NCBI GenBank assembly: GCA_964540855.1
Contig: CAZIOI010000002.1
Location: 1 to 44,362 of the forward strand
Length of the DNA stretch: 44,362 nucleotides
From: an uncultured Candidatus Saccharibacteria bacterium
GTDB taxonomy: Bacteria > Patescibacteriota > UBA1384 > DTJR01
Direction of reading: 5' to 3'
The translations under genes were made by a program, and so were the position numbers. Of this stretch, positions 1,255 through 42,924 are shown piece by piece. The notes under the pieces are model-generated. The model saw nothing but the letters and a program-made list of their open reading frames with translations. It did no database searches and was not told where the DNA came from. Each line of letters opens with the position of its first letter. The stretch's first letter is position 1.

Positions 1255-1369
1255 ACTGCTCCATATATTTAGCGTCTGCGAATTTATTTATGATAAAAAT
1301 ACCAAGGCTTTATAACAGGTTTAACATTATAACAAATACTACTTCGTATCAAGATTTACGCCAACCGTC

Positions 1370-1398
1370 TTGACATCGGGTATAATTGGCGGTAGAGT
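1370..1398 (+). promoter_or_regulatory. Sigma70-like promoter for GC-rich island 1 (TTGACA-17-TAGAGT)
   Basis: TTGACA at 1370-1375, a 17-nt spacer and TAGAGT at 1393-1398, about 65 nt upstream of the island ORF. Confidence 0.4.
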
Positions 1399-1462
1399 TT
1401 CCTGATTTAGCACATTACCAAGGGTTGCTTTTGCAGCCCAACGATAAACGGAGGTGCGCATT

Positions 1463-1858
1463 ATGCGCCCAACGAAACTTAGCAGTATTGCCGTGGTCGC
1501 CCTCGTGGCGACCCTCATGGTCGTAGCCTGCGCCGTTCCGGCGCAGGCCCAGCTCGGCATCCAGGTCCAGATCGGGCCCGGATACAACTCGCAGGGCCCA
1601 CTGCAGCCTGTTGTGGTGCAGTGGTCAGATGGGACGACTTCTGTGGCATGGGTGCCCGCGCCCCAGCCGCAGATCGTTGTCCCCGTTCGGCCGCAATGGC
1701 AGCAGCCCTGGGGCTGCCAACCACCCCCGCCACCATGCTGGGGCGGACCACCTCCTCCCTTTTTCGACGCCCCCCGTCGTGGCGGCTCCCACGGCGGCGG
1801 ACACCATGACGGTGGAGGCCGGATCCGCTCCGGCGGACCCAGCCGCCACCCACGCTGA
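1463..1858 (+). CDS. GC-rich island 1: secreted Pro/Gln/Trp/Gly/His-rich protein, no recognised family
   Basis: GGAGG (1450-1454) lies 8 nt before the ATG at 1463; a GTG at 1454 is an alternative start. The N-terminus has a signal peptide (KLSSIAVVALVATLMVVACAVPAQA/Q). The C-terminus is PPPPPCWGGPPPP...GGSHGGGHHDGGG. Codon usage is unlike the neighbours. Confidence 0.6.
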   Translation: MRPTKLSSIAVVALVATLMVVACAVPAQAQLGIQVQIGPGYNSQGPLQPVVVQWSDGTTSVAWVPAPQPQIVVPVRPQWQQPWGCQPPPPPCWGGPPPPFFDAPRRGGSHGGGHHDGGGRIRSGGPSRHPR

Positions 1859-1998
1859 CACCACAGCCGCGGGTGAGCTTCTGTTCCCGTCATCCGCGGC
1901 CCCACATCTTCGGTCGGTTGACCACGGTTCACACCCCCGGAACCGCGCCCAATGGTCTTCCGACCCTCCTGCGGGACATCACCTGTCCCGCGTCACAC

Positions 1999-2046
1999 GG
2001 CCCGAGCGGAGAGTATGCCCACTCTCCGCTCGGGCCACCTTGTTTA
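1999..2046 (+). terminator. Intrinsic terminator of island 1
   Basis: A perfect 16-bp stem (ggcccgagcggagagt / actctccgctcgggcc) with a 6-nt loop, followed by a T-containing tail (accttgttta). Confidence 0.7.
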
Positions 2047-2050
2047 TAAA

Positions 2051-2935
2051 CTAGTTCGCCGCTTGCCAACCATTTTCGGTCAAATCAAATTCAACGCTCC
2101 CCACCTCATCCGTCCTGAATATTTTTGCACCGAGATTTTTATAAAAATCAATTGTCTCTTTCGCCGGATGACCATAACGATTCGGCTGACCGACTGAAAT
2201 CACCGCATATTTGGCAGCAATTTTTTCCAGTAAGTTCTCACTGATACCATTACTCGACCCGTGATGAGAGGCTTTTACAATCTCGGATTTCAGTATCGTC
2301 TCAAGGTTAGCGCCAGCCACCGCATCCAGAGCTTTATTTTCAGCATCGGCGAGCATCATCACATCGGCATCGCCGGGCGCGTCAAATTTCATAACCAGAG
2401 AACTGTCATTTGATGATAAATCACCAACCTGATCCTTATTAGGCCACAGAATATCAACAGAAAAATATTCTCCAAGCGATACTTCATCACCAACGCCAAG
2501 TGTAAATTCGGAAATTTTTTGCTCATCAATCTTTTTGGCAATTCTCTGGTATGTTTTTGATTCAGCTTGTTTACCAGACGTGTATAGATTATCGATCTTG
2601 TACGAGTCCAAAATATGCTCGAATCCTCCGATATGATCCAAATCTGGGTGGGTCAAAAAAACATATTCCAACTCTCTATCCGAGGGCGGCATCACGGCTG
2701 CAAGCTTGTCCAAGACTCCTTCGTCCGGTCCGCCGTCAATCAATATTTGTACGGATCCCGGCAAGCTGAAAACCGCCGAATCACCTTGACCCACATCTAA
2801 AAAGAAAACTTTTGCTAACGTGTCAGAATCGGGACTTGCCTTTGCCGACCCGAAATAATAGACCCAAATACCCGAGCACAGCAATAACAGCGCAATGGCA
2901 ATATATTCAAATTTTATTTTTCTGAGCTTTGTCAT
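2051..2935 (-). CDS. comEC: ComEC/Rec2-type metallo-beta-lactamase domain protein (C-terminal part of ComEC as a separate ORF)
   Basis: Contains FLDVGQGDS, LTHPDLDHIGG and ASHHGS, the MBL motifs of the ComEC C-terminal domain. It has one N-terminal TM helix. Confidence 0.85.
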   Translation of the reverse strand: MTKLRKIKFEYIAIALLLLCSGIWVYYFGSAKASPDSDTLAKVFFLDVGQGDSAVFSLPGSVQILIDGGPDEGVLDKLAAVMPPSDRELEYVFLTHPDLDHIGGFEHILDSYKIDNLYTSGKQAESKTYQRIAKKIDEQKISEFTLGVGDEVSLGEYFSVDILWPNKDQVGDLSSNDSSLVMKFDAPGDADVMMLADAENKALDAVAGANLETILKSEIVKASHHGSSNGISENLLEKIAAKYAVISVGQPNRYGHPAKETIDFYKNLGAKIFRTDEVGSVEFDLTENGWQAAN

Positions 2936-4346
2936 AAATCATCGACAAATATACAATGATCATCGATACGATAACATAGTATGTGATCAAACCCGTAAGA
3001 CCGAACTGAATACTCTTGAAATTCAGAGTCTCAAAGGCAGACGATATCTCAATGACCTTCTTTATATATAATACAGGCAAACTAAAAAAAGTACTCGCAA
3101 CCAGCGCCGCTTTGAAGTTAATCAAAGCAATCGCAAAACCGACAAAAACCGCCAGCATCGCCAGTGGCACGATTGGCAAAATAAAAATGTTCGAGACAAG
3201 ACCGATGAGGCTGATTCGACCAAATTGATACAACAGCACGCCAAAACAAAACAATTGCGCCATTAGGCTTTCTGCAAAAACAGTCGCAATAGTCGAGAAC
3301 CATTGAGAGTCCTTGACAAAATATGAAATTTTTTGCGAGTAGATAATTCCGACCGTAGCCAAAAAGCTTAGTTGAAAACCAATATCGAAAATAATAAAAG
3401 GGTTAATAATCATCATTATAAGTCCCGCCAATACCAGTAAATTCATTGGTGAACCTTTCCTGCCAACCATTTTGGCGATAATTGCCGTAGACCCCATAAT
3501 AGCCGCGCGTACTACCGACGAGGGAAACCCGGTCAAGAAACAAAATATAATCAAAATCAGGATACTCAAGTAAAATGCCCTGTTCTTCCCGATCGCACCC
3601 CGAAGCAGATTAAAAAGTCCAACCAAGATAATCGAGATATTATAGCCCGATACAGCCGTGATATGCACAAGCCCGGAGTCTTTAATTTTTTCATCAAAAA
3701 TCTTCGAAAAATTCGGATCGCCAAAAATCAGACCCTTTGCCAATTGCCCGAGATCACCGGGCATTAACACGTCGAAAATAGAGTCGAGCCTTTCTCTGGC
3801 GGCGTTGAAATAATTTTTTAAAGAAAATCCCGAAGATATTATCCGGATCTCGTCCGTTTGAGCAATTTGATCCGTCGAATATTTTGCAAAATAATACTTG
3901 CCCATTTTCCGCTCCCGTGTGATAGCTCCTTCACCGACACAAATTAGAAGCATATCGGAAATTTTATAAGGCAATTCTTTTGCGGTTTTAACGATCAAAT
4001 TTCCGGCCGAAGAACTTACCGCAAGTTCTATGCCAAATGACGACTCGCGGATGTCTCGCAATTTAAATTCGCCGCAACCGTTAAAGTTGTCTATCGGACC
4101 AAGCAACCTAAAACCGCAAGCGAACAGTATTCCGGCATACAGCACAACAGCGACAAGAGCCACAGAAAACATTTTGTTTAACAAAAAAGTGGCAAGCAAA
4201 ACCAGCGCAACCGACAAAATAAACAAAAACATTTTTCTGTTATTTAGATCAAAACTCGCGCCAAGGAAAATTCCAACCGACGCAAAGAGCATTAAACACA
4301 CCGGCAAATCGATTTGAGCAATTTTTTTTGACAGCCGCCGGATCAT
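2907..4346 (-). CDS. comEC: ComEC/Rec2 competence channel, membrane part (DUF4131 plus Competence domain)
   Basis: 479 aa and polytopic. The central GYNISII...FCFLTGFPSSVVRAAIMG region is typical of the ComEC competence domain. It overlaps the MBL ORF by 29 nt. Confidence 0.85.
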   Translation of the reverse strand: MIRRLSKKIAQIDLPVCLMLFASVGIFLGASFDLNNRKMFLFILSVALVLLATFLLNKMFSVALVAVVLYAGILFACGFRLLGPIDNFNGCGEFKLRDIRESSFGIELAVSSSAGNLIVKTAKELPYKISDMLLICVGEGAITRERKMGKYYFAKYSTDQIAQTDEIRIISSGFSLKNYFNAARERLDSIFDVLMPGDLGQLAKGLIFGDPNFSKIFDEKIKDSGLVHITAVSGYNISIILVGLFNLLRGAIGKNRAFYLSILILIIFCFLTGFPSSVVRAAIMGSTAIIAKMVGRKGSPMNLLVLAGLIMMIINPFIIFDIGFQLSFLATVGIIYSQKISYFVKDSQWFSTIATVFAESLMAQLFCFGVLLYQFGRISLIGLVSNIFILPIVPLAMLAVFVGFAIALINFKAALVASTFFSLPVLYIKKVIEISSAFETLNFKSIQFGLTGLITYYVIVSMIIVYLSMIYDKAQKNKI

Positions 4347-4354
4347 CTAGGATA

Positions 4355-4948
4355 ATGTTAGCAGTAATTATGCGAAATCAAAGAACCATATCAAATCTCT
4401 TTATAGCCAGTCTCCTCGTTGTCGTAGTCACGACTTTCGGATTGTTTGCAAATTCCAAAATCCAGGCTGACAGCTACCCGGGCTACGCTGCAGCCAAATT
4501 GCAGTTTAAAATCACCTCCGCGACTAGACAAGATATAGAAGTTGAAACAAGATTTATGTCAACCGACCCGACAGTCAAAAAATACAACTACAAAAAGAGA
4601 ACTTTTTCAATCAAACCCGGCACGACCACCATTAACTGGACCATCAGAAAGATTATGCCCGGGACAAAATTGATCAAAGTTTATGCAACCAAAACTTTTT
4701 CACCCGACGAGATTACAACAACCCTCTTAGCTGACGAAGTTTCGTTAGTAGGACCATTTCAATGGATTGATCCGACCGCCGCAACCATTACCAAGACACC
4801 GACAAATACAACAACGCCGCAAGAGAGTCCAACCGCCTCAGCGGTTAAATCCGAGATACCGGTGCCGGCAGTACCGGCTGCGCCGTCGGCAACTGCCACC
4901 GCCTCGGCATCCTCCGGCGACTACCTGTCTCTCCCGGGCGGCCTCTGA
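4355..4948 (+). CDS. Hypothetical secreted or membrane-anchored protein with a Thr/Pro/Ala-rich tail
   Basis: An N-terminal hydrophobic anchor (ISNLFIASLLVVVVTTFGLFA) and host-like composition. The start is uncertain (ATG 4355 or 4370). Confidence 0.6.
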   Translation: MLAVIMRNQRTISNLFIASLLVVVVTTFGLFANSKIQADSYPGYAAAKLQFKITSATRQDIEVETRFMSTDPTVKKYNYKKRTFSIKPGTTTINWTIRKIMPGTKLIKVYATKTFSPDEITTTLLADEVSLVGPFQWIDPTAATITKTPTNTTTPQESPTASAVKSEIPVPAVPAAPSATATASASSGDYLSLPGGL

Positions 4949-5003
4949 CGAAGTCTGGACAAATTGGCTTTGTTGCAGTAATCTACACTTCTGGGAGTTT
5001 TGT

Positions 5004-5459
5004 ATGAAAGACAAAAAAACATCAATCAAAAACGAAATTGCAGAACTAAAGCAGGGCTGGCAAAGAACTCAAGCCGATTTTGACAATTATAAAAAGAGAA
5101 CCGAGCACGAAAAACAAAATTGGAATGGAGAGGGGAAATTGGAGGCATTCACCAAAATCCTTCCTGTACTAGATAATCTGGTGGCAGCCACCAACCACCT
5201 GCCCGAAAATCTCGCGCAAGACGGCTGGGCGCAAGGAATTTTATTTATCGCCAAACAAATCGAGCAAACTCTCGAAGATCTAGGAATATCTAGGATTTCA
5301 CCGCAGATTGGAGACAAGTTTGACCCGAATTTCCATGAGGCCGTGGCTACAGAGAAAAATGAACAAATTGACACCGGATGTATAATTAGTATTGAAAATA
5401 TTGGTTATATGAGCGAGAACAAATTAATACGCCCGGCTAGGGTGAAGGTGGGAGAGTAA
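5004..5459 (+). CDS. grpE: Nucleotide exchange factor GrpE
   Basis: DFDNYKKR and FDPNFHEAV motifs. GGGAG lies 6 nt before the ATG at 5004. The longer ORF from 4767 is an Arg/Pro-rich artefact. Confidence 0.9.
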   Translation: MKDKKTSIKNEIAELKQGWQRTQADFDNYKKRTEHEKQNWNGEGKLEAFTKILPVLDNLVAATNHLPENLAQDGWAQGILFIAKQIEQTLEDLGISRISPQIGDKFDPNFHEAVATEKNEQIDTGCIISIENIGYMSENKLIRPARVKVGE

Positions 5460-5903
5460 ATGGCTAACGAAATCAGAAAATTGCGAAGGTCATCCGGCGA
5501 CAAAATGATCGCTGGTGTTTGCAGCGGTTTGGGTGAGTATTTCGACGTTGATCCTCTGATTTTCAGACTTATTTTTGCGGTAATGATCATTTTCGGTGGT
5601 ACCGGAGTTCTTGCGTATATCATCTTGTGGATTCTAATTCCGGAAGACAGTGAACAAAGACCCACTAAAGACCTAGGAGAAAATATCAAGAAAGGCGCCG
5701 ATAAGATGGCATCGGAAATAAAAGATGGCAGTGTTCACGGTAGCGGTCGATTCGTAGCCGGCGCAATAATTTTAACAATCGGTATTATATTTTTGATAAA
5801 CAATTTCTTCCCCTTCATCGGACTAGGGATGAAAAAACTCTGGCCCCTTGTCATTATTGCCGTTGGAGGGAGTATTTTACTTAGTCCCAAAAGGAGAGAC
5901 TAG
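5460..5903 (+). CDS. PspC domain-containing membrane protein
   Basis: KMIAGVCSGLGEYFDVDPLIFRLIF is the PspC domain signature. The start abuts the grpE stop. Confidence 0.85.
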   Translation: MANEIRKLRRSSGDKMIAGVCSGLGEYFDVDPLIFRLIFAVMIIFGGTGVLAYIILWILIPEDSEQRPTKDLGENIKKGADKMASEIKDGSVHGSGRFVAGAIILTIGIIFLINNFFPFIGLGMKKLWPLVIIAVGGSILLSPKRRD

Positions 5904-8868: not shown

Positions 8869-8985
8869 GTCGCTAAAGCGACATATTTCTAACTTGGTAT
8901 CTTTTGACTTACAATTTTTACTTAACAATTTTTAATTTTGCATTGTGATTATACGTTTTGCCTTTTTCGTTATACGTTTTGAATT
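8869..8985. repeat. Dispersed intergenic repeat copy (GTCGC-hairpin module, third copy of the 65-bp module, GTTATACG arms)
   Basis: gtcgctaaagcgac at 8869-8882. 8890-8954 is about 85% identical to 37485-37549. It is followed by gattatacgttttgcctttttcgttatacgtttt. Confidence 0.75.
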
Positions 8986-11084: not shown

Positions 11085-11239
11085 AGATTGAATTTCTCTT
11101 ATAAATTTGTTATCATTTCCCAAGTGAATTTCGTGAATTTACAGCACTTTTATATCTAAATGTGTTTTGGCTGTGCAAAAAAATTATCGCACAGCGATAC
11201 CAAAGTTATACGTTTTTCGTTTTGCGTTATACGTTATTT

Positions 11240-11314
11240 GGGCCAGTAGCTCAGTGGTAGAGCAGGAGCCTTTTAAGCTTCGTGTCGCGGGTTCGATCCC
11301 CGCCTGGCCCTCCA
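11240..11314 (+). tRNA. tRNA-Lys (anticodon UUU), CCA encoded
   Basis: Hand-folded cloverleaf: acceptor GGGCCAG/CTGGCCC, D stem GCTC/GAGC, anticodon stem GGAGC/GCTTC with loop CTTTTAA, T arm GCGGG-TTCGATC-CCCGC, then discriminator T and CCA. Confidence 0.93.
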
Positions 11315-11351
11315 ACAAAGTCGATCACCGCAAGGTGGTCGTTTTTGTTGG
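11315..11351 (+). terminator. Terminator hairpin after tRNA-Lys
   Basis: cgatcacc-gcaa-ggtggtcg followed by ttttt. The flanking caacaaag/ttttgttg extends the stem. Confidence 0.6.
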
Positions 11352-11474
11352 ATGATTTGGGACGGTGGGGATCGAAAGCCGGACTGAACGATCCGCCAAC
11401 AGGCAGAGAGTGAGGGAGGCGAGCTCGCGAGCGGCGCATTCCTTGATAATTATATTGCGCCGACTTGTGAGAAG

Positions 11475-11492
11475 CCCCGCCTGGCCCTCCAA
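11475..11492 (+). repeat. 18-bp direct duplication of the tRNA-Lys 3' end (att-like)
   Basis: ccccgcctggccctccaa at 11475-11492 is identical to 11298-11315, which covers the T-stem 3' half, the acceptor 3' strand and CCA. Confidence 0.85.
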
Positions 11493-11609
11493 AACAGAAA
11501 GTTGTACGCTTGCAAGAGTACTTTTTAAAAAAATAGTTACAAAAGTAAACAGAGCTGTCATTTTACTACTCAATCTATCAAGAGATTATGTGTACTTTTC
11601 AGACAAAAA

Positions 11610-12833
11610 TTATTTAATATCCAGAACAATTTTTTCTAATTCTGATGGATCATCGAATATCTTGAATTTTATTCCGGAAGCCGACAAATTATTTTTAGCG
11701 CTTTCACCTATTTTAGTTGCATAGACCTCGTCAGCAGAAACAGCTTTGGCAAATTTCACTCCATGACCAGTTGTCGCCTCATAAAAAATATTTTTAATTT
11801 TTGTTTTACCAAGAATTTTTTTATTGTCATCATAATCAATAACCGCATACTCTTTGACCCCAAATTCATCTGCAATATCTCCTTCAAAAACGGGGATAAT
11901 AATTCTATAACCGATTTTTTTCGGCCCTATTGGGGAAAAACCTCTTCTGTAAATCAATCTAGAACCAATTGAGTTTTTAAGTGTTCCTTTATGAAAATCA
12001 TGCGATTCAACAGATATATTAACAAGTTTTAATTTATCAATTTTTTCTAAAAGATTTTTTTCTAACTTATCTGTTATATTAGAAGCCTCCTCGATTTTGA
12101 GTTTAGGATCAAGTACGATTTTTATATCTGCAATAGCAGCTGCTCCCATTTTTCTGCTCTTTAAGCTCGATAAATTAATTCCTATATCTTTAGATATTTT
12201 TTTTATCTGTTCTTCTATTTCGGGGTCGGCAATATCGAGCAGGGAACTTGAAATATCGCTTCCAAGTTGCCACGACTCCCAGAGAATATATATGCCGATT
12301 ATGACTGTAATTAAAGCGTCGGCGCCCGTCCATAATTTAATTAACAATATTCCTAAAAGAACTCCTAAAGATGCAATCGCGTCAGCCCGAGAATGTTCGC
12401 CGTCAGCGATAAGGGCAGGCGAAGAGTACTTAGCGCCTGTGTCAAACTTAAGCCGGGCCATAATTTCGTTCACTACGACCGATATAGCCATTATTGCTAT
12501 TGCCCAGACAGACAGAGTTGCCCGCTCTGGTCTAAAAAAATGGATTATTCCCTCATAAAGAATCCAAAAAGCAGAAATGGCTAGAAGAATTGAAACTATA
12601 AAACCGGCCAATGTCTCCGCACGATAATAACCATAAGGATGTTTTTCATCTACCGGTTTTTGTGCACTTTTAATCCCAAAATAGGCTACAATTGAGGAGA
12701 TAATGTCTAACCCGGAGTGAACGCCTTCAGCAATCAAAGCAGTTAAATTAAACGTTAAGCCCAAAACTATCTTGCCACCTGCGAGCATTACATTGACCAA
12801 AATTGCAAACAAAGAAACTGATTGTTGGTTCAT
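11610..12833 (-). CDS. Cation diffusion facilitator (CDF) transporter fused to a NifX/NifB-like (Nitro_FeMo-Co type) C-terminal domain
   Basis: The CDF core carries HSGLDIISS, HPYGYYRAE and GEHSRADAIASL. The C-terminal ~100 aa (EFGVKEYAVIDYD...GHGVKFAKAV...SASGIKFKIF) match the pattern of small NifX-like cofactor-binding proteins. Confidence 0.85.
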   Translation of the reverse strand: MNQQSVSLFAILVNVMLAGGKIVLGLTFNLTALIAEGVHSGLDIISSIVAYFGIKSAQKPVDEKHPYGYYRAETLAGFIVSILLAISAFWILYEGIIHFFRPERATLSVWAIAIMAISVVVNEIMARLKFDTGAKYSSPALIADGEHSRADAIASLGVLLGILLIKLWTGADALITVIIGIYILWESWQLGSDISSSLLDIADPEIEEQIKKISKDIGINLSSLKSRKMGAAAIADIKIVLDPKLKIEEASNITDKLEKNLLEKIDKLKLVNISVESHDFHKGTLKNSIGSRLIYRRGFSPIGPKKIGYRIIIPVFEGDIADEFGVKEYAVIDYDDNKKILGKTKIKNIFYEATTGHGVKFAKAVSADEVYATKIGESAKNNLSASGIKFKIFDDPSELEKIVLDIK

Positions 12834-12844
12834 TTTTATCCTTT

Positions 12845-13585
12845 TTATACAAACAAATAATTTAAAACAATAAAAACGGCAATACTTACGATAATTCCCA
12901 TAACAAAAAATGCCGGCTTTTTATATTTTTGGGCAAAGGGGATTAACTCGTGGATTGAAACAAAGATCATAGCTCCCGCGGCAAAAGCCAAAAAAATTGG
13001 ACTCAACGCCGGAAGCACTGCTATTCCCACCAAACCGATCATTGCACCTGCTGGTTCAGCGATCGCAGAAAATACTGCCGCTTTATAAAGAAACTTTTTA
13101 TCCTCCAAAGCGGCTATCGGCGCGGCGACAGCAAACTCTTCCGGAATATTATGCAAGGCGATAGCAATTGCAACCAAAATTCCCGAGGCAGGATTAATAA
13201 TATAAGAATTAACCATGGCAAAACCCTCGGGTAAGTCATGTAAAATCAAACCAAACGTTACCAACAGGGCAACTTTATATAAATTTGCCTTAGACCCCCT
13301 TCTCTCTTTTACTAAATGAGTATGAGGAATAACATAATTCAAAAATCCCAAGACCAGTAAGCCTGCTAAACCAGCTAACAAAACCGCTATTTTTGTGGTA
13401 TTTTCCAAAGCCTCCGGAATGAGCTCAAAAAAAGATATTAGAAGCATAATTCCGGTAGAAAAACCTATGCCACTGACTACCGCTTTAACATTATTTTTGC
13501 AAAAAAGCACTAAAACAGTACCGATCAAAGTCGTGAAACCCGACATAATAGACAGGGCAAAAATTATCAGATAAGTATTCTGCAT
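12845..13585 (-). CDS. ZIP family metal transporter (ZupT-like)
   Basis: LHDLPEGFA and HNIPEEFAVA motifs in a 246-aa polytopic protein. Confidence 0.9.
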   Translation of the reverse strand: MQNTYLIIFALSIMSGFTTLIGTVLVLFCKNNVKAVVSGIGFSTGIMLLISFFELIPEALENTTKIAVLLAGLAGLLVLGFLNYVIPHTHLVKERRGSKANLYKVALLVTFGLILHDLPEGFAMVNSYIINPASGILVAIAIALHNIPEEFAVAAPIAALEDKKFLYKAAVFSAIAEPAGAMIGLVGIAVLPALSPIFLAFAAGAMIFVSIHELIPFAQKYKKPAFFVMGIIVSIAVFIVLNYLFV

Positions 13586-13720
13586 TAAAAACCTATTTTA
13601 TACTAACAAATTTATAAAAAATTCTTTTATAATCTTAACATCAAATAACCAATAAACTTGTTACTTGGTAAAATTTCATAGCAAGATTTTACTGACAACT
13701 GCCGATACAATCCTATCCGA

Positions 13721-14431: not shown

Positions 14432-14453
14432 TTTCTCAATGCTCCTTAATAAT

Positions 14454-14481
14454 AAATAGAGGGGGCACACCCCCTCTATTT
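14454..14481 (-). terminator. Hairpin between the DUF5320 gene and the CcdA-like gene
   Basis: aaatagaggggg-caca-ccccctctattt has a 12-bp perfect stem and a T-rich tail on the minus strand. Confidence 0.6.
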
Positions 14482-14483
14482 AA

Positions 14484-14744: not shown

Positions 14745-14885
14745 ATAAATCACCTTCTTTCTACAATTATTATTTAAAAAGTCTATGAGTTAATTAAATC
14801 CGATGAGAACATACAACAATTTTTGATTTTGACCGAGAGTATATAGCATTAGAATATTATATCTTAACGTTTACATCAGATATAA

Positions 14886-14905
14886 TATATAACATATGTT
14901 ATATA
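14886..14905. promoter_or_regulatory. 20-bp perfect palindrome (tatataacat|atgttatata) upstream of the DUF5320 operon
   Basis: The palindrome is read directly from the sequence. It sits between the arsP-like stop and the DUF5320 start, overlaps TATAAT-like hexamers and is AT-rich. Confidence 0.35.
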
Positions 14906-14933
14906 ATGTCAAATAATCATGTGTCCAACCAAG

Positions 14934-16147: not shown

Positions 16148-16171
16148 TATTGATATGATAGCAAACTCTGA

Positions 16172-30423: not shown

Positions 30424-30469
30424 AAACTGATCTTAGCATTTTGTACCCTTAAACGGAAGGGAGATGTCA

Positions 30470-30768
30470 GCGTATAACTAAAAACGAAGAACGTATAATC
30501 ACAATAGATTAACGTATAACGTAAAAGGCAAAACGTATAATCACAACGCATAATTCAAAACCTACAAACTATCGTTGCAAAGCAACGCAATAGTTATACG
30601 CTATACGTTTTACGTTATGAATCAATTTGTCATTGCGCGGTTTTGGGGCGATCCAAAACCTAAACCTCTGTTTAACATTTTAACCCGGAGGACGCGGCAA
30701 TCTAAAAACAATTGTCGCAAAGTGACACCATAGTTATACCTTTTGCATTTTACGTTATACGTTATTAT
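30470..30768. repeat. Cluster of dispersed repeats upstream of murJ
   Basis: Several CGTATAAC/CGTATAAT arms, the hairpins gttgcaaagcaac and gtcgcaaagtgac with CCATAGTTATAC, and GTCATTGCG...GCGGCAATCT at 30629-30703. Confidence 0.75.
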
Positions 30769-33857: not shown

Positions 33858-33940
33858 AAAAATCCTCAAAAACTTTGCATCTTTGACTTTATACTTAAAT
33901 TCAAAATTGCACAAAGGAACGAGATAGTCAAAGCCAAACC

Positions 33941-34032
33941 AACGTATAACGAAAAAGGTAAAACGTAAAACCACAATAAACTAATGTATAACGTAAAACG
34001 AAAAACGTATAACTATGGTGTCGCTTCGCGAC
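33941..34032. repeat. Dispersed palindromic repeat copy
   Basis: aacgtataacgaaaaagg...acgtataactatggtgtcgcttcgcgac. Confidence 0.75.
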
Positions 34033-34121
34033 GATATTTGTGATTTAGTGTTTAGAACTTATTTGCTCAAACGTCATTTGTAAAAATGCGATTCTATCAA
34101 GTTTCTGCTAATCTTTTATTA

Positions 34122-35327: not shown

Positions 35328-35692
35328 ATAGAAAAATAGTACAATTCACATTCGTTATAGCAGTGGCGGTTTTTGTTGGCTGTGGTCTATTGGGTTTTGG
35401 AATATATAAAAATCAGCCGACCGCCGACAGCTTTTCTTCGACCATCCCCGCCGGTCCGAGTTGGGCGGCAGACAATACTCCGGAAGTGCCTGACAAGCCC
35501 GCTATTGCCGGGGATGCAACCGACGACGGAATTACTAATTCGATGGATATAAACGCGCTCCTGTATCGCTGGGGTGAATCAGACGCCGATTATAAGACAG
35601 CCGCCGGCAAAACTACTGTTGGAAGCTATGATATTGTCGAAGTTGTCAATAACTGGCACTGCACCGAAGACCGGAACGGGTGCGGAAGTTAA
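35324..35692 (+). CDS. Small membrane-anchored protein with a dockerin/EF-hand-like Ca-binding repeat
   Basis: An N-terminal TM helix, then GDATDDGITNSMDINALLYRWG, which resembles a dockerin repeat. Confidence 0.5.
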   Translation: MNRKIVQFTFVIAVAVFVGCGLLGFGIYKNQPTADSFSSTIPAGPSWAADNTPEVPDKPAIAGDATDDGITNSMDINALLYRWGESDADYKTAAGKTTVGSYDIVEVVNNWHCTEDRNGCGS

Positions 35693-35714
35693 CGCAAAAT
35701 TAAAAACGAAAAAC

Positions 35715-35779
35715 GTATAACCACAATTCAAAATTATTAAGTACTAAGTAAGAATTGTAAGTCAAAAGACACTAAGTTT
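35715..35779. repeat. Left copy of the 65-bp inverted repeat that brackets the ncRNA island
   Basis: The reverse complement of 37485-37549 matches with 2 mismatches in 65 (hand alignment). Confidence 0.85.
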
Positions 35780-35780
35780 A

Positions 35781-35892
35781 GTCATTCCTGACTTGCTGTG
35801 CCCTGCGTAGCCCTGCCTACCGGCAGGCAGGCTTGGCGAAGTGGGGTCATTGCGAACCCGCGCAGCCACTGGCGAAGTGAGTGTGGCAATCT
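35781..35892. repeat. 66-nt GTCATTCCTGAC... module plus a GTCATTGCGA...GGCAATCT module
   Basis: 35781-35846 equals 41218-41283 with 2 mismatches in the same orientation. 35846-35892 belongs to the GTCATTGCGAG family. Confidence 0.85.
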
Positions 35893-36189: not shown

Positions 36190-36238
36190 CTCTATAAAAC
36201 AGCGAAGGCCACGGAGCTCCGAGTGGAGACGTGGCCTT
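36190..36238 (-). terminator. Terminator of the island 4 transcript
   Basis: On the minus strand, aaggccac-N18-gtggcctt is followed by cgctgtttta. Confidence 0.6.
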
Positions 36239-37297
36239 TGGTTGGGTCCCGCTAGGCGGGACCCCGGAGTAATATGGGTGGATGAATGTCGGAGGTGGAC
36301 AAAGGCGCGAACCCTGTCCACCCCCTTGGGCCTGTGTGCCCAAAGATGATCGCGTCCCGCCCGAAGGTGACTCGGGCGGGGTTGATGAAAAACTGCCTTC
36401 CAGCGGCTACGGGGGCTTCCCGTCATCATCCCGCTGTCGGCAGGGTGCGCCCCCGACCCGTGGTCGGGGGTACTTCCCTTGGCTCCGGTTCGATTAGGCG
36501 ACCTGCAAGGTCGCCTCCCCGACGTCAGATTTCATTCGGTCGTCCTTCCGGCCCGCCTCCTGGCGGGCGCGAGGGGATCTGGTAACCCGTCTCGTCCGCG
36601 CTCCCCTCAGAGAACGGAGTCTCAGGCGGGATTCCGTCAGATGGGCGTTGGGCCGGTAGTGCGATGCAAAGTGCAATCCAGCCCTCATCATCGTCGCAGG
36701 TGGCCCAACGCCCGTCCGTACGACTCCACGACGACTGATCGAACGCCCGGCCGAAGCACGAGACTCCAGCAAGGTCGCCAGAGTGTAGCTACATGACCGA
36801 GCGTCGCCACTTGAACGCACTGTTTGCACTCCTGATCGCCCCTACAGGGCGATCGGCCACTAACGTCCCACGAGATCCGACTCCTTCTCTTACACATCTG
36901 GCTGGAGTCGGTCTCGAGAAAGATGATACGTCCCCCGTTCGGAGTCCCCACATACCGCAGACTAGTGAAGTCACACCGAATCTGCCTTGTGAAGCCCTTA
37001 CATCAAACAGCAGAAAACCTTGGCCGCCATCAATAGGCGGCAATTTGTCTCCGCAAAGCAACATCAGAACAGCCGGAACAGGCAAGACCCGAACTCGTCC
37101 TCCTTGGGAGAAGGAATACCGTTCGAGTAACCGCCGCCATCTCCTCGCGGAGACAGCCGTTTACCGGCCGGCCTAAGGCCGCCCGGGTCTGACGAGACGA
37201 CTAGATTGTCACATCTAGCACGGCGGTGTGTCTGCCAACATCAATCAACCCTCCTTTCCCAGATCATCCACCATTTCAAGGTTCGTACAAATACGAC
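36190..37297 (-). ncRNA. Candidate large (about 1.1 kb) GC-rich structured ncRNA, class unknown (island 4)
   Basis: No credible ORF exists in any frame, and many perfect 6-12-bp helices are present. Minus-strand promoter-like and terminator-like signals frame it. The strand and ends are inferred, not proven. Confidence 0.5.
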
Positions 37298-37304
37298 TGG
37301 GTTC

Positions 37305-37332
37305 ATAATATTACTTTTTTTAAAAAATGCAA
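37305..37332 (-). promoter_or_regulatory. Putative promoter of the island 4 transcript (TTGCAT-17-TATTAT)
   Basis: The reverse complement reads TTGCAT (37327-37332), a 17-nt spacer, then TATTAT (37305-37310). Confidence 0.45.
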
Positions 37333-37351: not shown

Positions 37352-37471
37352 AATCGTTGTTAATGTATAACTAAAAACGTATAGCGTATAACTATGGTGT
37401 CGCTTCGCGACAATCGTTGTTAATGTATAACGTAAAACGTATAGCGTATAACTATGGTGTCGCTTCGCGAC
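37352..37471. repeat. Two tandem 60-bp copies of the dispersed repeat unit
   Basis: 37352-37411 and 37412-37471 are identical except for the dinucleotide ct versus cg/ta versus gt in ...gtataac(ta/gt)aaaacg... Confidence 0.9.
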
Positions 37472-37484
37472 AATATTTATTTTA

Positions 37485-37549
37485 AACTTAGTGTCTTTTG
37501 ACTTACAATTCTTACTTAGTAATTATTAATTTTGAATTGTGGTTATACA
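37485..37549. repeat. Right copy of the 65-bp inverted repeat, abutting the dnaE stop
   Basis: This is the inverted partner of 35715-35779. The dnaE stop codon begins at 37550, the next base after the repeat. Confidence 0.85.
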
Positions 37550-40500
37550 TTATTCGTTAGCGAAGGTTTTCTTCAGTTCCTGTTCGAACTCATCTGTCAA
37601 GTCCACTTTTGACCTCGTCTTGGCAAACTTGAAATCGCCATTTTGTTTATATGCGAGAACCAACAGACTTTCGCCCGAAAAGCGTTCAACAATTTCTTTT
37701 AATTTTAAAATTTTGTCCTTTTTAGTCGTTTTGGGCAAAATAACATAAACCGTCCCATCATCTTTGAGCGCAAACTGCCCTTTTTCAAAGGCATGTTTCA
37801 GTTTGTCGGTTATATTTTTTGTCTCCGATTCTTCGGTAAGGTCAATTTCAACAATTTTGTCTTCTACTGGGTCAACGGTTACAACGTGACTAGAGGCAAA
37901 TTTTGTATTGACAGAGGCAAATTCCGGCGCAGCAATTTTCGCCGGATCAAACTTTTCCGTTCGCTCGGCCAATACCTTGACCTCCCCGTCTTTTGTCGAA
38001 ATCTTGCCGGTGACAAGCACAATATTATCCGCCACCCAAAGGTCTGCTTCAGCCTCTAGGGTTTTCGGAAAAATAAGCACCTCCGATTTACCGGAGAGGT
38101 CTTCTATAGTCGCAAATGCCATGGCGGCGCCGGATTTTGTATTGATCTTTTTTATCGCCTGAATAATTCCACCGACTTTGACTTTTTTGCCGTCCATCGA
38201 CAAATTAAGGTCCGTCAGAGAATGGCTGACCGCCATCTTGAGTTTCGCGCCGTTTTCTTTGAGCGGATGCTCGCTGATATAAATTCCCAGTAGTTCCTTT
38301 TCCCAAACAAGTTTATCAGCCTGCTCGGCCGGTTTGACCTCTGGCAGATCGAGCTTGCCGATTTCGATATCGCCCGAGAGAACCTCACCGAACAATCCGA
38401 TTTGCGAGGATTTTATCTGCTTGGTCGTATCCTGAATCCTCTTGGTGATCGTTTCCATACCTTCTAATACTTGGTTTCGCTCAATCAGCGAATCCAGCGC
38501 GCCGGATTTTGCCAAGGCCTCCAAAATCTTTTTGTTTAACACCGATCGAGTGGTCTTGGCGGCATCAGCCTGATCTACCGTCTCTTCGACATCCGTTTTG
38601 CTAAGCCGGTCAATAAAATCTTCAAAACTCTTGTACGGACCGTTTTTTTTGCGCTCGCGAACAATCACTCGCGCCGGATTTGTGCCTATATTTTTGATCG
38701 CCGCAAGACCAAAGCGAATATCGCCCGTCTCCTTGACCACGCCAAAATCGACAAAGCTTTCGTTGACATCGGGCGGCAAAACATTGATACCCATCTTATT
38801 GCATTCGTCAATCTCGATCGAAATCCTATCAATATCGTCCAAATCGTTAGTCAAAAGCGCCGCCATAAAGCACTGCGGATGATTCGCCTTGAGATACGCC
38901 GTCTGGTAAGCGATCATGGCATAACAAACCGCGTGCGACTTGTTAAACCCATAGGCCGCAAAATCTTGAAGCATCGAGAAAACTTTTTTGCCGTCCGATT
39001 CGCTGACCCCGTTTTTTTGCGCGCCCTTGATAAATTTTTCTTTCATCTCGGCCATCAGCTCGGCAATTTTTTTACCCATCGCTTTTCTAAGCTTGTCAGC
39101 CTCGCCGCCGGTAAAACCGGCCATATCGCGGGAGATCTGCATAACTTGCTCCTGATAAACCGGAATACCGTAGGTAACTTCGAGAGCTTTTTTGGTCATT
39201 TCGTGCGGATATTCTATCGCCTCGCGACCGTTTTTACGAGCAATAAACGTGTCGATAAATTGCATCGGACCCGGCCTGTAAAGCGCCACCATGACAGCCA
39301 CATCATCGAGCGTGGTCGGCTTGAGCTCTTTGATATAGCGCTTCATACCGGCGGACTCCAGCTGAAACACTCCCGTTGTCCTTCCGTCGCCCAATAACTT
39401 GAATGTTTTTTGGTCGTCCAACGGAAGGTTGAAAATATCTATCTTTTTGCCGTCCACCGCCTCGATAATTTCCAGCGCGCGCTCAATGGTCGTAAGGTTT
39501 GCTAGCCCCAAGAAGTCCATCTTTAACAGTCCCAGCTCCGCCACCGGATACATCGAATACTGTGTCACCTGTTTGACACCCTCTTTTTGCGCCTGCTGCA
39601 GTGGCACATAACAGGTCAACTCGTCCTTGGTAATAACAAAAGCGCTAGCGTGCTGGGAGGCGTGGCGCACCGTCCCTTCGAGCTGTATCGCCATATCCAT
39701 TAGTCGCTTGGCACGAGGATCTTTTTGGTAAACTTCTTTGAGTTCAGCCGAGTCCTTGACCGATTTTTCCAGCGGAATGTGTTTGCCTTGCACCGGCGGC
39801 GGCACGATCTTGGAAATCGCGTCCACCTCGGCATAAGGATAACCGAGCACACGGCCGACATCGCGCACAGCAGCTCGCGCCGCCATTGTTCCAAAAGTAA
39901 TAATGCCGGCAACCCGTTGCTCGCCATATTTTTGCACAATATAATCCAAAACCTCGCTGCGGCGGTGATCGGCAAAATCAAGGTCGATATCAGGCATTTC
40001 ATGGCGATCGGGATTCAAAAATCTCTCAAAAAGCAGACTATACTTTAGAGGGTCGGCATCGGCGATATGCGTTAAATACGCCACCAACGATCCCGCCGCG
40101 CTACCGCGACCCGGACCGACCATGATCCCTTGCTGCTTCGCCCAACTGACATAGTCGGAGACAATCAGAAAATAACTCGAGAAACCCATACTGCAAATTA
40201 CCGACAATTCATATTCAAGACGTTCGTTTATTTTTTTGAGCTCTTCGGCAGACGCGTTCGGGTAACGATCTTTTATCCCGTTTCGGCACAAATCTTTGAG
40301 ATACTCGGCATCTGTTTTACCCTTGGGTAGTGGAAAAGTCGGCAGCAAGTTTGTTTCAAATGGTATTTCGAGGTCGCATTTATCGGCAATCTCTTTTGTG
40401 TTAGTCAGCGCCTCTGGCACTTCTTTAAACACCTTCGCCAAATCCTGCGGATCGCGCAATGAAAAATCGCCGTTGTAAGTCATTCTGTTTTTGTCTTCGA

Positions 40501-41197: not shown

Positions 41198-41217
41198 TTT
41201 TTTAAATTATTTTCTTT

Positions 41218-41478
41218 GTCATTCCTGACTTGCTGTGTCCCGCGTAGCCCTGCCTACCGGCAGGCAGGCTTGGCGAAGTGGGGTTCAGGAATCTTGGTAT
41301 TGTCATTGCGAGCGAGCGTAGCCCCGTGAAGCCTTAAGTGTAATGGGGCGAAGTGAGCGCGGCAATCTCTTCGCATCGTTCTTTTTACACTTTTCATTAA
41401 CATTTTGATTTTTAAGATTTAATTTTTAATTTTACGTTGTGGTTATACATTTTTCGTTTTACGTTATACGTTATTCAC
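41218..41478. repeat. Repeat cluster upstream of dnaE
   Basis: The 66-nt GTCATTCCTGAC... module is at 41218-41283 and is closed by gttcaggaat. GTCATTGCGAG...GGCAATCT is at 41302-41368. A partial 65-bp module and GTTATACG arms lie at about 41420-41478. Confidence 0.8.
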
Positions 41479-41507: not shown

Positions 41508-41556
41508 GGGGACAAAAACGCAAAAGGCCCCGCCATACTCGTCGTATGGCGGGGCC
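41508..41556 (-). terminator. Island 5 intrinsic terminator
   Basis: On the minus strand a 13-bp perfect stem (ggccccgccatac / gtatggcggggcc) is followed by ttttgcgttttt. Confidence 0.75.
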
Positions 41557-41581
41557 TGATGGGCTGGACGGGAAAACAAAA

Positions 41582-42187
41582 CTACTCGAACATCCTCTTA
41601 GCGACCTTGTCGGCCGCCGATTCACTGCGTGGCTTGTCGAAGTGTTGGCGAACAGCATCAAACAAGCTGTTTGCCCAATTCTCCGCAGCCAGCCCCGCGG
41701 ACTTGGCCGCCCACAACAGCTCTGTGAACAACGAAAGAGCCCTCGCCATGTCGCTCTGCGTAATCTCGCAGGGCAACTTGACGAGCTCGCCCACGACAAC
41801 GAAGTCGCGTGTGAGCTCGCCCGAGATGTCGTCAGCCGTGCCGGAGGCGACCTTCAACATCTGCCGCCAGTCGCCATTCTTGAAACGGCTTGGCGACCCC
41901 ACCGGCAACGGAGTCCCGTCGCCAATCGTGACGCGTACGAAAACGAACCTGCCCCCTTCCTCATCTGCCCCGAGCACGAGGTCGAGGTTGAGGGCGGCCG
42001 CAACCCACTGCTCCAGCCAGCTGCCCTCGGCAGCTGCAACGTCACGCTCACCCTGCAGCCACCGGACAGCATCCATCACCGCGGCCTTGATCGTGGCGAT
42101 AACCCCAAACCGCCCCTCCTCCGCCATCTTCCGCAGACCGGCCGAAAACCTGATCTCCCTGTTCTCCACGTAACTGTCTCCCATCAT
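41582..42187 (-). CDS. GC-rich island 5, gene 2: 201-aa cytoplasmic protein, no recognised family
   Basis: The composition is balanced and the SD GGGGAG lies within the repeated leader. The plus-strand ORFs over the same DNA are Arg/Pro/Ser-rich artefacts. Confidence 0.6.
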   Translation of the reverse strand: MMGDSYVENREIRFSAGLRKMAEEGRFGVIATIKAAVMDAVRWLQGERDVAAAEGSWLEQWVAAALNLDLVLGADEEGGRFVFVRVTIGDGTPLPVGSPSRFKNGDWRQMLKVASGTADDISGELTRDFVVVGELVKLPCEITQSDMARALSLFTELLWAAKSAGLAAENWANSLFDAVRQHFDKPRSESAADKVAKRMFE

Positions 42188-42189
42188 CT

Positions 42190-42226
42190 GTCAAGATACT
42201 CCCCTTCGCGCGCTGGCTTGGGGGTT
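42190..42226 (-). promoter_or_regulatory. Repeated 5' leader element, copy A (upstream of the 201-aa gene)
   Basis: gtcaagatactccccttcgcgc at 42190-42211 is identical to 42831-42852. The adjacent ggct(t/c)gggggtt is also shared. The minus-strand sense is CCCCC...GCGCGAAGGGGAGTATCTTGAC. Confidence 0.6.
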
Positions 42227-42816
42227 TACTTGCGCAATTGCCCTCGACCACGACCAACCCTCTCAAACGTCTGGTCCACTCCGGCGCGCCCCTCAACGAT
42301 CCAACGGGGAGTCTCCTCACCGTCGCTAACACGCCCCTCCGCCATCTCCGCTGCCTCTCGAGCAAGCTTGAGGTAGTGCCTGAACACATCCTCAAGCTCC
42401 TCCCGAAGGTAAGCCACGCCATCGATGATCTCGCAGTCCTCAGCGAGAAAATGATAAAGCTCCCAGCTGGCCGCCTCTCGCAGAACATTAGATACTTCCT
42501 GGTAACTGCCGAGGGTATGCAGCTCAACGGGGATCTTGAGCCAACGCCGGCGATTGAACCGGACCTTGGCGGTAACATCATTCGCCCGGTCACCAACACA
42601 GCGCTGCCTCCGTCTGCTTGGACAGATGGCAAAGCAAACCTCAAAGTGTCTGCTAACAAACCTGTCCAACCAGCCGCCAACTGCAACAGCGGCAGCTAAC
42701 TGGTTTTCATCAAGGAGCCACTTCAACCGCTTAAGAATGGCCCCCTTGACTAAAGACATGGCCTCGGGCTTTTTGGCCTTCAGCTGCTGCATCAATCGCT
42801 CCGAGAGTCTCGTCAC
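42226..42816 (-). CDS. GC-rich island 5, gene 1: 196-aa cytoplasmic protein, no recognised family
   Basis: A GTG start lies 7 nt after AAGGGGG. The sequence has amphipathic helical segments (SWELYHFLAEDCEIIDGVAYLREELEDVFRHYLKLAREAAE). Confidence 0.6.
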   Translation of the reverse strand: MTRLSERLMQQLKAKKPEAMSLVKGAILKRLKWLLDENQLAAAVAVGGWLDRFVSRHFEVCFAICPSRRRQRCVGDRANDVTAKVRFNRRRWLKIPVELHTLGSYQEVSNVLREAASWELYHFLAEDCEIIDGVAYLREELEDVFRHYLKLAREAAEMAEGRVSDGEETPRWIVEGRAGVDQTFERVGRGRGQLRK

Positions 42817-42830
42817 GGCTACCCCCTTAC

Positions 42831-42867
42831 GTCAAGATACTCCCCTTCGCGCAAAGGCTCGGGGGTT
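42831..42867 (-). promoter_or_regulatory. Repeated 5' leader element, copy B (upstream of the 196-aa gene)
   Basis: Carries the same 22-nt core and the 12-nt flanking match as copy A. Confidence 0.6.
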
Positions 42868-42895
42868 GTTGATTCCCTGTTAAAGGCATCGAGAG

Positions 42896-42924
42896 ATGAT
42901 ACAACTTGCCCCCTTGAAAGTCAA
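42896..42924 (-). promoter_or_regulatory. Putative island 5 promoter (TTGACT-17-TATCAT), divergent from rpmA
   Basis: The reverse complement reads TTGACT (42919-42924), a 17-nt spacer, then TATCAT (42896-42901). Confidence 0.45.

Follow-up and report, generated by a model that had tools for sequence, protein, structure and literature searches.

The window analysed here is the complete contig CAZIOI010000002.1 (44,362 bp) of an uncultured Candidatus Saccharibacteria bacterium, in which a backbone with 42.5% GC is interrupted by five GC-rich islands, I1 to I5, and by a short GC-rich piece, I6, near the gene for tRNA-Lys. I1 (positions 1370-2046, 65.1% GC) lies between the genes for YebC and a ComEC-MBL protein, I2 (16205-17190, 53.8%) between those for ArsR and AspS, I3 (25837-26334, 56.0%) between those for a UPF0259 protein and LepA, I4 (36190-37332, 58.9%) between a gene for a 122-amino acid (aa) protein and that for DnaE, and I5 (41508-42924, 58.9%) between those for DnaE and ribosomal protein L27; the short piece spans 11352-11474 (56.1%). 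Windows of 500 bp taken from the backbone average 42.8% GC (standard deviation 3.9, maximum 53), and a composition scan of the whole window revealed no GC-rich islands beyond those listed. A first-pass annotation had described autonomous, foreign-looking units at these positions, together with a 160-bp piece, each lodged between genes without damage to its host neighbors. Computation of GC content, GC content at third codon positions (GC3) and tetranucleotide usage bears out that description: composition along the window is not uniform and all flanking genes are intact. Taken together, the data presented below indicate that the islands are accessory cassettes that truly belong to the chromosome and have long been part of the lineage, so that neither misassembly nor recent import accounts for them.

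Open reading frames (ORFs) of the islands have GC3 values of 0.61-0.79, compared with 0.455±0.032 (range 0.38-0.53) in 28 backbone genes. GC content is raised at all three codon positions of the cassettes and their amino acid make-up is that of high-GC genomes (Arg 8.7 versus 4.1%, Lys 4.0 versus 8.5%). Raw tetranucleotide usage correlates with that of the backbone at -0.17 to 0.28 for the islands and at 0.74-0.84 for 1-kb backbone chunks. After correction for GC content the pooled cassettes correlate with the backbone at r=0.56 and backbone chunks at 0.63, and single cassettes are nearer to the cassette pool than to the backbone.

The islands are not peculiar to this contig. Relatives' contigs and loci that we compared with the window carry labels of the form L001. 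The junctions of I1 recur in four independent Logan assemblies (L001-L004) at 88-100% nucleotide identity, I3 and its flanks recur in two further runs (L049, L050), I5 is joined to the L27 gene in L051 and L052, which come from two runs, and is also present in short contigs of two more samples, and one run has I4 together with the sequence on its left. For I2 it is the left junction that was found again, in L122, a run that may be the contig's own source. A relative at greater distance, sampled in the JGI contigs L057 and L058, has homologs of I1 and I3 in place.

Four of the islands (I1, I2, I3 and I5) are small transcription units that hold six genes in all; the first-pass annotation had counted seven island proteins, the excess coming from ORFs in I4 that are not genes. 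The I1 gene (1463-1858, plus strand) encodes 131 aa with a GC3 of 0.72, a signal-peptide-like N-terminus as judged by eye and a tail rich in Pro, Gly, His and Arg, and on these sequence features its product looks secreted. I2 carries two plus-strand genes, I2a (16375-16911, 178 aa, GC3 0.61), a singleton ORFan, and I2b (16939-17127, 62 aa), whose product has two hydrophobic segments as judged by eye; the products of I2 would be one soluble protein and one small membrane protein. The I3 gene (25903-26259, plus strand, GC3 0.655) encodes 118 aa and is predicted to be beta-rich. I5 lies on the minus strand and comprises I5a (42226-42816, 196 aa) and I5b (41582-42187, 201 aa, GC3 0.79), distant paralogs with about 24% identity. 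A 37-nt element precedes each of these two genes on that strand (42831-42867 before I5a, 42190-42226 before I5b), and the 89% identity of the two copies suggests a constrained leader or operator. As a separate observation, an antisense ORF of 197 aa (1339-1932) spans the I1 gene, and folding of the I1 ORF is stronger for its antisense strand (z -9.4) than for its sense strand (z -4.9).

A consensus scan for sigma-70-type sites located promoters ahead of I1 (1370-1398, plus strand, TTGACA-17-TAGAGT, 10 of 12 positions matched), I2 (16303-16330, plus strand, TTGACT-16-TACTAT) and I5 (42896-42924, minus strand, TTGACT-17-TATCAT), the last being identical in L051 and L052. I4 has a weak promoter-like site (37305-37332, minus strand, TTGCAT-16-TATTAT) that was read from the sequence and fails the consensus scan but is conserved in L055, and for I3 no convincing promoter is found in the window sequence. 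The earlier claim of a sigma70-like promoter in each island therefore stands for I1, I2 and I5, holds weakly for I4 and falls for I3, and the TTGAC-type -35 element that had been offered as a hallmark is not island-specific because dnaK and other backbone genes share it. The rise in GC content begins only downstream of the promoter, which is itself host-like in both sequence and composition.

At the other border stands an intrinsic terminator. The stem is perfect over 16 bp in I1 (1999-2036, plus strand; 100% conserved in L004), where it is convergent with the ComEC-MBL gene ending at 2051, and over 16 bp in I2 (17130-17176, plus strand), where it is kept in L056 despite different upstream genes. 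The I3 terminator (26287-26328, plus strand) has an 11-bp stem followed by a T-run and is conserved in L049, L050 and L057, that of I5 (41525-41557, minus strand) has a 14-bp stem followed by a T-run and is 100% identical in L051-L053, and that of I4 (36205-36238, minus strand) has a stem of only 9 bp followed by TTCGCTGTTTTA and is identical in L055. Perfect stems of 10-16 bp, as first described, are thus present in every island but I4, and the contrast drawn with shorter, A/T-flanked host terminators is broadly right, since the latter reach 13-15 bp only when their A/T arms are counted. Upstream of I2 an additional terminator-like hairpin without a cassette of its own (16238-16275, plus strand) was read in the sequence and is conserved in L056; it is possibly the remnant of an earlier cassette. 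I2 is flanked by two hairpins with a common outer stem, GGCCCC...GGGGCC.

Comparison with close relatives revealed that the borders are kept while the interior changes. Between the window and L004 the leader of I1 (1370-1462) is 98.9% identical, its terminator 100%, its ORF 87.9% and the neighboring gene 90.6%. In L051 and L052 the promoter, leader and terminator of I5 are about 100% identical to those of the window and most of the island is about 72% identical; within I5b a 399-nt stretch is about 81% identical and the 3′ end is unalignable, and the two proteins share 50% and 61-66% identity with their counterparts in the window. Sliding difference counts peak exactly between promoter and terminator. 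Synonymous divergence (dS) is 0.44 in I1 versus L004, equal to that of the flanks, 0.40 in I3 versus 0.11 in its flanks, and 1.13 in I5a versus 0.15-0.23 in the flanks, with a range of 0.62-1.13 across I5. The ratio of nonsynonymous to synonymous divergence (omega) is 0.12 for I1, 0.27 for I3, 0.30 for I5a and 0.50 for I5b, and substitutions in all four are concentrated at third codon positions. The low ratios and the third-position bias argue that these are real genes under purifying selection.

In some strains the interior is a different one altogether. L050 carries an I3 allele only 29% identical at the protein level (E 9e-8) within flanks that are 98.7% identical and with the same borders. 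The C-terminus of this allele, PPMAGDSGRD, is that of the distant L057 ortholog, which argues that allele classes are common to different lineages. In L056 the left flank of I2 is 98.4% identical to that of the window, and the I2 genes are replaced by unrelated genes for 168-aa and 79-aa proteins with the same architecture and terminator as in the window, the 79-aa protein again having two hydrophobic segments. An IS481-family transposase gene lies beside the replacement genes in the I2 slot of L056 (4231-5256). A divergence pattern of this kind is typical of diversifying or frequency-dependent loci.

Searches for relatives of the island proteins returned almost nothing beyond the same slots. 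Among 5.8 billion protein clusters I3 has one homolog, I5b two and I2a none, the search with I2a returning only itself (the same protein is present on the second assembly, L122). An exhaustive HMMER pass with I5a over 1.84 billion representatives yielded one real homolog. All homologs of I3, I5a and I5b come from the same slot in closely related strains, and neither the 5.8 billion clusters nor the 1.84 billion representatives held a relative of an island protein outside the lineage. Orthologs of I1 are found in the same slot of L001-L004 and of L057/L058.

I4 differs from the other islands and appears to be a structured RNA of ~1.1 kb in the slot downstream of dnaE and a candidate for a new structured RNA family; the weak promoter-like site and the terminator hairpin suggest that it would be transcribed from the minus strand. 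Its conserved structured core (36195-36725) has no conserved reading frame in comparison with L055 and a flat GC profile across the three codon positions, and its 5′ half (36726-37304) is less conserved in the alignment with L055. A coding role for I4 was considered and rejected: its six frames yield only short tblastn matches against L055, and the codon-position profile is flat. The minimum free energy of folding is well below that of shuffled sequence, with a z of -10.9 for the minus strand and -5.4 for the plus strand. In two aligned segments of I4 and L055, 144 predicted pairs include none that is broken and eight with compensatory changes on both sides, and about 20 further pairs are altered on one side with pairing kept by G-U, which works on the minus strand; this covariation comes from two sequences only, whose alignment also served to predict the structure. 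L055 is the one homolog of I4 known. Against Rfam at permissive thresholds the best scores of I4 were at most 20 bits (E>1), tRNA being the only family to pass in the window, and a comparison of I4 DNA with phage and plasmid collections gave no match. In the 5′ half, the leader of I4 (37215-37258, minus strand) contains a strong Shine-Dalgarno sequence, AAAGGAGGG, followed by an eight-codon mini-ORF (37241-37215) that reads MLADTPPC-stop; L055 has MANGPPC-stop at this position (both by eye).

The same slots are GC-rich in other members of the clade. Loci retrieved through DnaE, one from a genome collection (L005) and four from metagenomes (L060, L061, L071 and L093), have GC-rich runs on both sides of dnaE in five of five relatives with 70-81% DnaE identity. 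In L006/L064, which are Berkelbacteria-like with 62% DnaE identity, there are no such runs, and loci of the candidate phyla radiation that are more distant have almost none. Upstream of dnaE, in the L27/dnaE slot, the runs of the relatives contain ORFs whose codon periodicity is like that of coding sequence but which are not related to I5: profile comparison and all-against-all BLASTP found no homology between the I5 family and the slot contents of L005, L060 and L071. The content of this slot differs among the window, L051, L005, L060, L071 and L093, and tandem cassettes, such as I5a/I5b in the window, are present in L005 and L060 as well. In L060 a GC-rich L27/dnaE run of 3-4 kb includes a retron-type reverse transcriptase (RT) gene at 4103-5887 (PADLOC RT_XIII, 1e-40; NCBIfam retron St85 RT, 1e-37). 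A mechanism like that of diversity-generating retroelements was considered and rejected, as the window has no RT and the RT of L060 is of the retron type with no template/variable repeat pair nearby. Downstream of dnaE the GC-rich run is non-coding in the window, in L055 and in every relative compared (L005, L060, L071, L093), and apart from the pair of window and L055 these segments can be aligned neither with I4 nor with one another. Upstream of AspS, the slot is filled differently in the window than in L056, and in L057 it is empty. Compared with dnaE of the window, that of L071 is interrupted by about 1.1 kb of additional sequence (about 7814-8956 of L071), possibly an intein.

Two cassettes are old. 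The backbones of the window and L057 have diverged to a dS of between 1.5 and saturated or unmeasurable, and backbone GC3 has changed from one to the other (0.43-0.47 in the window, 0.30-0.39 in L057), whereas the GC3 of the cassettes is the same in both (0.72 versus 0.71 for I1, 0.655 versus 0.64 for I3). The first-pass annotation had allowed that orthologous islands might prove syntenic in relatives with host-like codon usage; they are indeed syntenic, but their composition is not host-like. Since the recently swapped cassettes are GC-rich as well as the old ones, a GC-rich pool must exist now and have existed before the lineages split. The unchanged GC3 across saturated divergence argues against fading fresh imports and is no proof of active maintenance.

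I6 and the region that follows it bear the marks of integration at a tRNA gene. The tRNA-Lys(UUU) gene (11240-11314, plus strand; ARAGORN and Rfam) ends in an 18-nt sequence, CCCCGCCTGGCCCTCCAA (11298-11315), of which an exact, att-like direct repeat occurs at 11475-11492; two exact copies compare with none expected by chance. Between the copies lies I6 proper (11316-11474, plus strand), a GC-rich non-coding insert of 159 nt that folds with a z of -4.4, is identical in L056 and has no match in Rfam. The native tRNA-downstream sequence (AACAGAAA.TTGT) follows the second repeat copy in the window and directly follows the tRNA in L057, which argues that I6 is the remnant of something integrated at the tRNA. 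Beyond it is a minus-strand block of low GC content (11493-16200, GC3 0.29-0.43) with genes for cation efflux, Zip, SfLAP, an ArsP permease and ArsR, which looks like a conventional AT-rich accessory island beside tRNA-Lys. The block is missing from L057-L059, where AspS follows tRNA-Lys after about 0.5 kb; relative to these loci the window has an extra 5.9 kb between tRNA-Lys and AspS (11316-17180), made up of I6, the metal-transport block and I2. In L057 (10664-10921), and also in L059, the intact tRNA-Lys gene is preceded by a 5′ copy truncated to about 52 nt and by a GC-rich insert of 130 nt; about 100 nt downstream of the intact gene there is a degenerate copy of its 3′ end. The truncated copy with its insert, together with the duplication in the window, points to tRNA-Lys as a repeatedly used insertion site.

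Further repeats occur between the genes. Members of an AT-rich family of 44-110 nt, with the core ...AACGTATAACGTAAAACG...TATAACTATGGTGTCGCTTCGCGAC and a 5-bp hairpin (GTCGC/GCGAC), are present in both orientations in many intergenic regions, with copies at 8884-8978, 11171-11236, 20723-20869, 22215-22329, 26401-26519, 30468-30764, 33940-34045, 35690-35780, 37352-37558 and 41408-41476. They adjoin I3, I4 and I5 and are also present at gaps that have no island. An inverted pair (35705-35780 and 37483-37558; 76 nt, 95% complementary) flanks a 1.7-kb segment that holds I4. A 60-nt unit is duplicated in tandem (97% identical) at 37352-37471, just downstream of dnaE. Another repeat, of 70 nt and moderate GC content, has two intergenic copies (35778-35847 and 41215-41284; 96% identical) that stand either side of the block of I4 and dnaE.

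Our preferred reading of these data, to which we attach middling confidence, is that fixed hotspot slots between housekeeping genes are filled from a pool of GC-rich accessory cassettes belonging to one Patescibacteria clade. In each protein cassette (I1, I2, I3, I5) one or two small genes restricted to the lineage are followed by a very strong intrinsic terminator, and I1, I2 and I5 have in addition a sigma-70 promoter of the ordinary host type. Conservation is confined to the borders, which are formed by the terminator and, where present, by the promoter and 5′ leader; the interior evolves several times faster than neighboring genes, persists as deeply diverged allele classes and is in some strains swapped for unrelated GC-rich genes. 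The swapping would most likely take place by homologous recombination through the conserved borders and flanks. We propose this route because the population is visibly mosaic and because a ComEC DNA-uptake channel is encoded in the window. L001 shares with the window an identical tract of 1,059 bp across I1 (1073-2131) within flanks that are 10-20% divergent, and L002 is identical to the window save for one segment of about 1.5 kb (2131-3600) that is about 12% divergent; the two together indicate that recombination is frequent in the population. Between RuvC and YebC, L001 has an additional gene for a GATase-domain protein (3025-4065) that the window lacks. I1 and I3 would have been in their slots since before the split of lineages whose synonymous divergence is now saturated, while the contents of I2 and of the L27/dnaE slot would have turned over recently, and it is the coexistence of old residents with recent turnover that suggests slots drawing on a standing GC-rich pool. 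The cassettes probably function in strain-level conflict or interaction, as defense, secreted or membrane proteins, a guess that draws on how the cassettes diverge, on the retron that one relative has in such a slot and on the signs of secretion and membrane insertion, and on no family match.

The best-supported lead on the GC excess of about 15-25 points is a pressure on the transcribed sequence itself. Two lines of evidence suggest it. First, the cassette RNAs fold beyond what their composition predicts: against dinucleotide-matched shuffles the folding z averages -3.05 for cassette ORFs (n=13) and -0.39 for backbone ORFs (n=12; Mann-Whitney p=3e-4). Second, the rise in GC content starts after a host-like promoter. 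A stronger form of the reading, which we regard as possible and put forward only tentatively, is that of a long-lived GC-rich compartment in which fixed slots, ORFan cassettes and at least one large structured RNA are actively held 15-25 GC points above the genome amid fast turnover and exchange among lineages. If this were true, nucleotide- or RNA-level selection specific to transcripts, or an unrecognized mechanism of cassette exchange, would be at work, and I4 would represent a new class of large non-coding RNA; active maintenance of the GC excess would imply either an unrecognized constraint on transcripts or a separate gene pool that feeds candidate-phyla genomes.

Several observations weigh against the preferred reading or against parts of it. 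With regard to function, the island proteins had no significant match in Pfam, PHROGs, PADLOC, NCBIfam or the sequences of the PDB, and AlphaFold models of I5b and I3 reached a predicted local distance difference test score (pLDDT) of 37.8 and 50.6, too poor for a fold search. The first-pass remark that the island proteins match no recognizable family is thus correct for all six, but this is no peculiarity of the islands, since several backbone proteins of normal GC content also lack a family. Mosaic recombination is seen elsewhere in the genome too, so the identical tract across I1 is not evidence specific to cassettes. Excess folding is present in only one of four downstream-of-dnaE runs and in none of L005, L060 and L071, and the assignment of slot contents at about 70% identity to the same pool takes position and composition as its only basis. 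As for GC maintenance, it is read from about 110-130 codons per gene, and three-taxon polarized third positions count GC-to-AT over AT-to-GC changes at 14:4 in I1 and 9:3 in I3, a direction toward which a saturated GC-rich outgroup biases the counts. At face value these counts would mean slow decay of GC content, and if the ancestor was very GC-rich, the data speak only marginally against such decay.

Bacterial accessory and mobile DNA is normally AT-richer than the genome of its host. Here the composition is reversed: the most variable genes of a streamlined, symbiont-type bacterium are markedly GC-richer than the rest and occupy the same gaps clade-wide. What is unusual is this direction, the persistence, the fidelity to slots throughout the clade and the fact that one of the residents is a large structured RNA. 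The cassettes are obvious candidates for strain-specific functions such as defense and host contact, which are almost entirely unknown in such organisms, and compositional jumps of this kind are no reason to trim sequence from such genomes as contamination. Genomic islands in Patescibacteria have been reported in general terms (PMC12455944) and a hypervariable repeat gene has been described in a Gracilibacterium (PMC6851277), neither account describing the cassette pattern; our literature search, which was limited and so leaves absence unproven, found no description of GC-rich cassettes in fixed slots.

Among the alternatives, it seems unlikely to us, although this one has the most to recommend it, that DNA is imported repeatedly and to this day from a high-GC source outside, such as a host bacterium or the phages or plasmids of that host. 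Fragments would settle in permissive intergenic hotspots, gain host promoters and diverge beyond recognition of the donor. The GC content raised at all codon positions and the high-GC type of amino acid usage given above are what such a history would leave, as are the att-like duplication at tRNA-Lys, the IS481-family transposase and the retron in relatives' slots, and the unrelated GC-rich genes in the I2 slot of near-identical strains; the polarized counts lean from GC to AT, and the ComEC channel would provide for uptake. Yet very large searches found no homolog in other organisms, the DNA of I4 is unmatched in phage and plasmid collections and no integrase or recombinase is encoded in the window. 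Despite saturated divergence, I1 and I3 have orthologs in the same slots with GC3 unchanged, the GC-rich part begins only after a host-type promoter of host-like composition, and the GC-corrected tetranucleotide usage of the pooled cassettes approaches that of backbone chunks. Acquisition from a high-GC donor in the form of recent events, as the first-pass annotation had proposed, is left unsupported by the lack of outside relatives, by the synteny of I1 and I3 and by the presence of GC-rich slots flanking dnaE in all relatives with at least 70% DnaE identity.

Quite improbable, in our judgment, is that the genes were born within GC-rich structured non-coding loci, of which RNA genes like I4 would be the primary residents. 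GC-rich sequence contains few stop codons, so long ORFs would arise in it and some would become genes. Such an origin fits the GC-rich, non-coding sequence that lies downstream of dnaE in the window, L055, L005, L060, L071 and L093, the long ORFs in several frames of island DNA, the poor predicted folds of the ORFan proteins and the excess RNA structure of cassette coding regions. Against this origin, I1 and I3 are under clear purifying selection across saturated divergence and no locus was seen that is non-coding in one strain and coding in another; moreover, it leaves the source of the GC-rich non-coding DNA unexplained.

We give slightly less credence still to a dedicated, dispersed, integron-like exchange system in which the GC-rich palindromes double as recombination sites and terminators. 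It would account for terminal palindromes of 11-16 bp that are kept at cassette ends while the upstream genes are swapped, for the position of I2 between two hairpins with the same outer stem (GGCCCC...GGGGCC), for tandem cassettes (I5a/I5b, L005, L060) and for cassettes that, like those of integrons, are small, mostly ORFan and compositionally distinct. However, the 44 kb encode no integrase or other recombinase, the perfect stems with T-runs are ordinary intrinsic terminators that have neither the bulged bases nor the core sites of attC, none of the cassette families turned up in more than one slot, and the left boundaries of swaps lie in ordinary conserved sequence with no palindrome. Highly improbable is the earlier proposal of a single foreign system that is dispersed over the islands and co-regulated: the islands have a common architecture and similar GC content, but comparison of all islands found no shared sequence among them, their promoters have only the general host consensus and the cassettes are replaced independently of one another in different strains. 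Finally, a chimera of assembly or binning, which the first-pass annotation had also raised, has nothing but the sharp compositional jumps in its favor and can be rejected because the junctions are identical in independent assemblies of different runs and in JGI contigs and orthologous cassettes lie within long contigs of relatives.

With the pool of accessory cassettes in fixed slots retained as the preferred reading, the units can be set beside known systems. The 5.9-kb region at 11316-17180 resembles tRNA-linked genomic islands in that an exact 18-nt duplication marks its start at the 3′ end of tRNA-Lys, its accessory genes are for metal transport and relatives lack it; it differs in having no integrase, in that the repeats bracket only 159 nt and in that no further repeat was found at its distal end. 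I4 resembles large RNAs such as OLE, GOLLD and ROOL in having a conserved structure that extends over at least 530 nt of its ~1.1 kb, a GC content high for its genome, many helices with compensatory changes and its own terminator. Unlike them, it belongs to no Rfam family even at permissive thresholds and has a single homolog, L055, and the GC-rich non-coding segments in the same slot of distant relatives lack I4 sequence and, in three of four cases, excess folding.

Integron cassettes share with the protein cassettes their small size, mostly single-gene ORFan content, terminal palindrome, distinct composition and tandem stacking. In contrast to integrons, whose cassettes are promoterless and arrayed at one attI, the units described here have their own promoters and occupy five dispersed slots; no intI or other recombinase is found among the ORFs of the window, and the perfect 11-16-bp stems with T-rich tails include no attC and, by eye, no common core motif. 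Phage morons are autonomous promoter-gene-terminator units inserted between phage genes, often with deviant GC content, as in lambdoid phages. The likeness is close: a sigma-70 promoter of their own, one or two small genes, a strong terminator, deviant composition and undisrupted neighbors, although it is limited by the promoters, which were found and are conserved for I1, I2 and I5 and are not recognizable in I3. The flanking genes, however, are cellular (YebC, ComEC, AspS, LepA, DnaE, L27), there is no significant PHROG match, the window has no integrase or phage genes, and the cassettes occupy the same slots clade-wide, some being orthologous over saturated divergence and one being a non-coding RNA.

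Chromosomal hotspots of integration and defense flanked by core genes ('genomic islets', defense islands) are well known, and the slots resemble them in their fixed position, their conserved core-gene borders, their content that varies by strain and their probable turnover by recombination, as well as in the retron found in one relative's slot (L060). Of mobile-element genes, an IS481-family transposase was seen in L056. The slots differ from such hotspots in that the units measure only 0.5-1.4 kb, have no integrase and are GC-richer than the genome, in that none of the six cassette proteins of the window matches a PADLOC defense family, and in that some cassettes are long-term residents with allelic variants and not insertions that are present or absent. 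With no phage context they are not morons, and with neither integrase nor attC they are not integron cassettes; on the points that define those two classes the units fall outside both, and what they combine is the architecture of a moron with the behavior of a hotspot.

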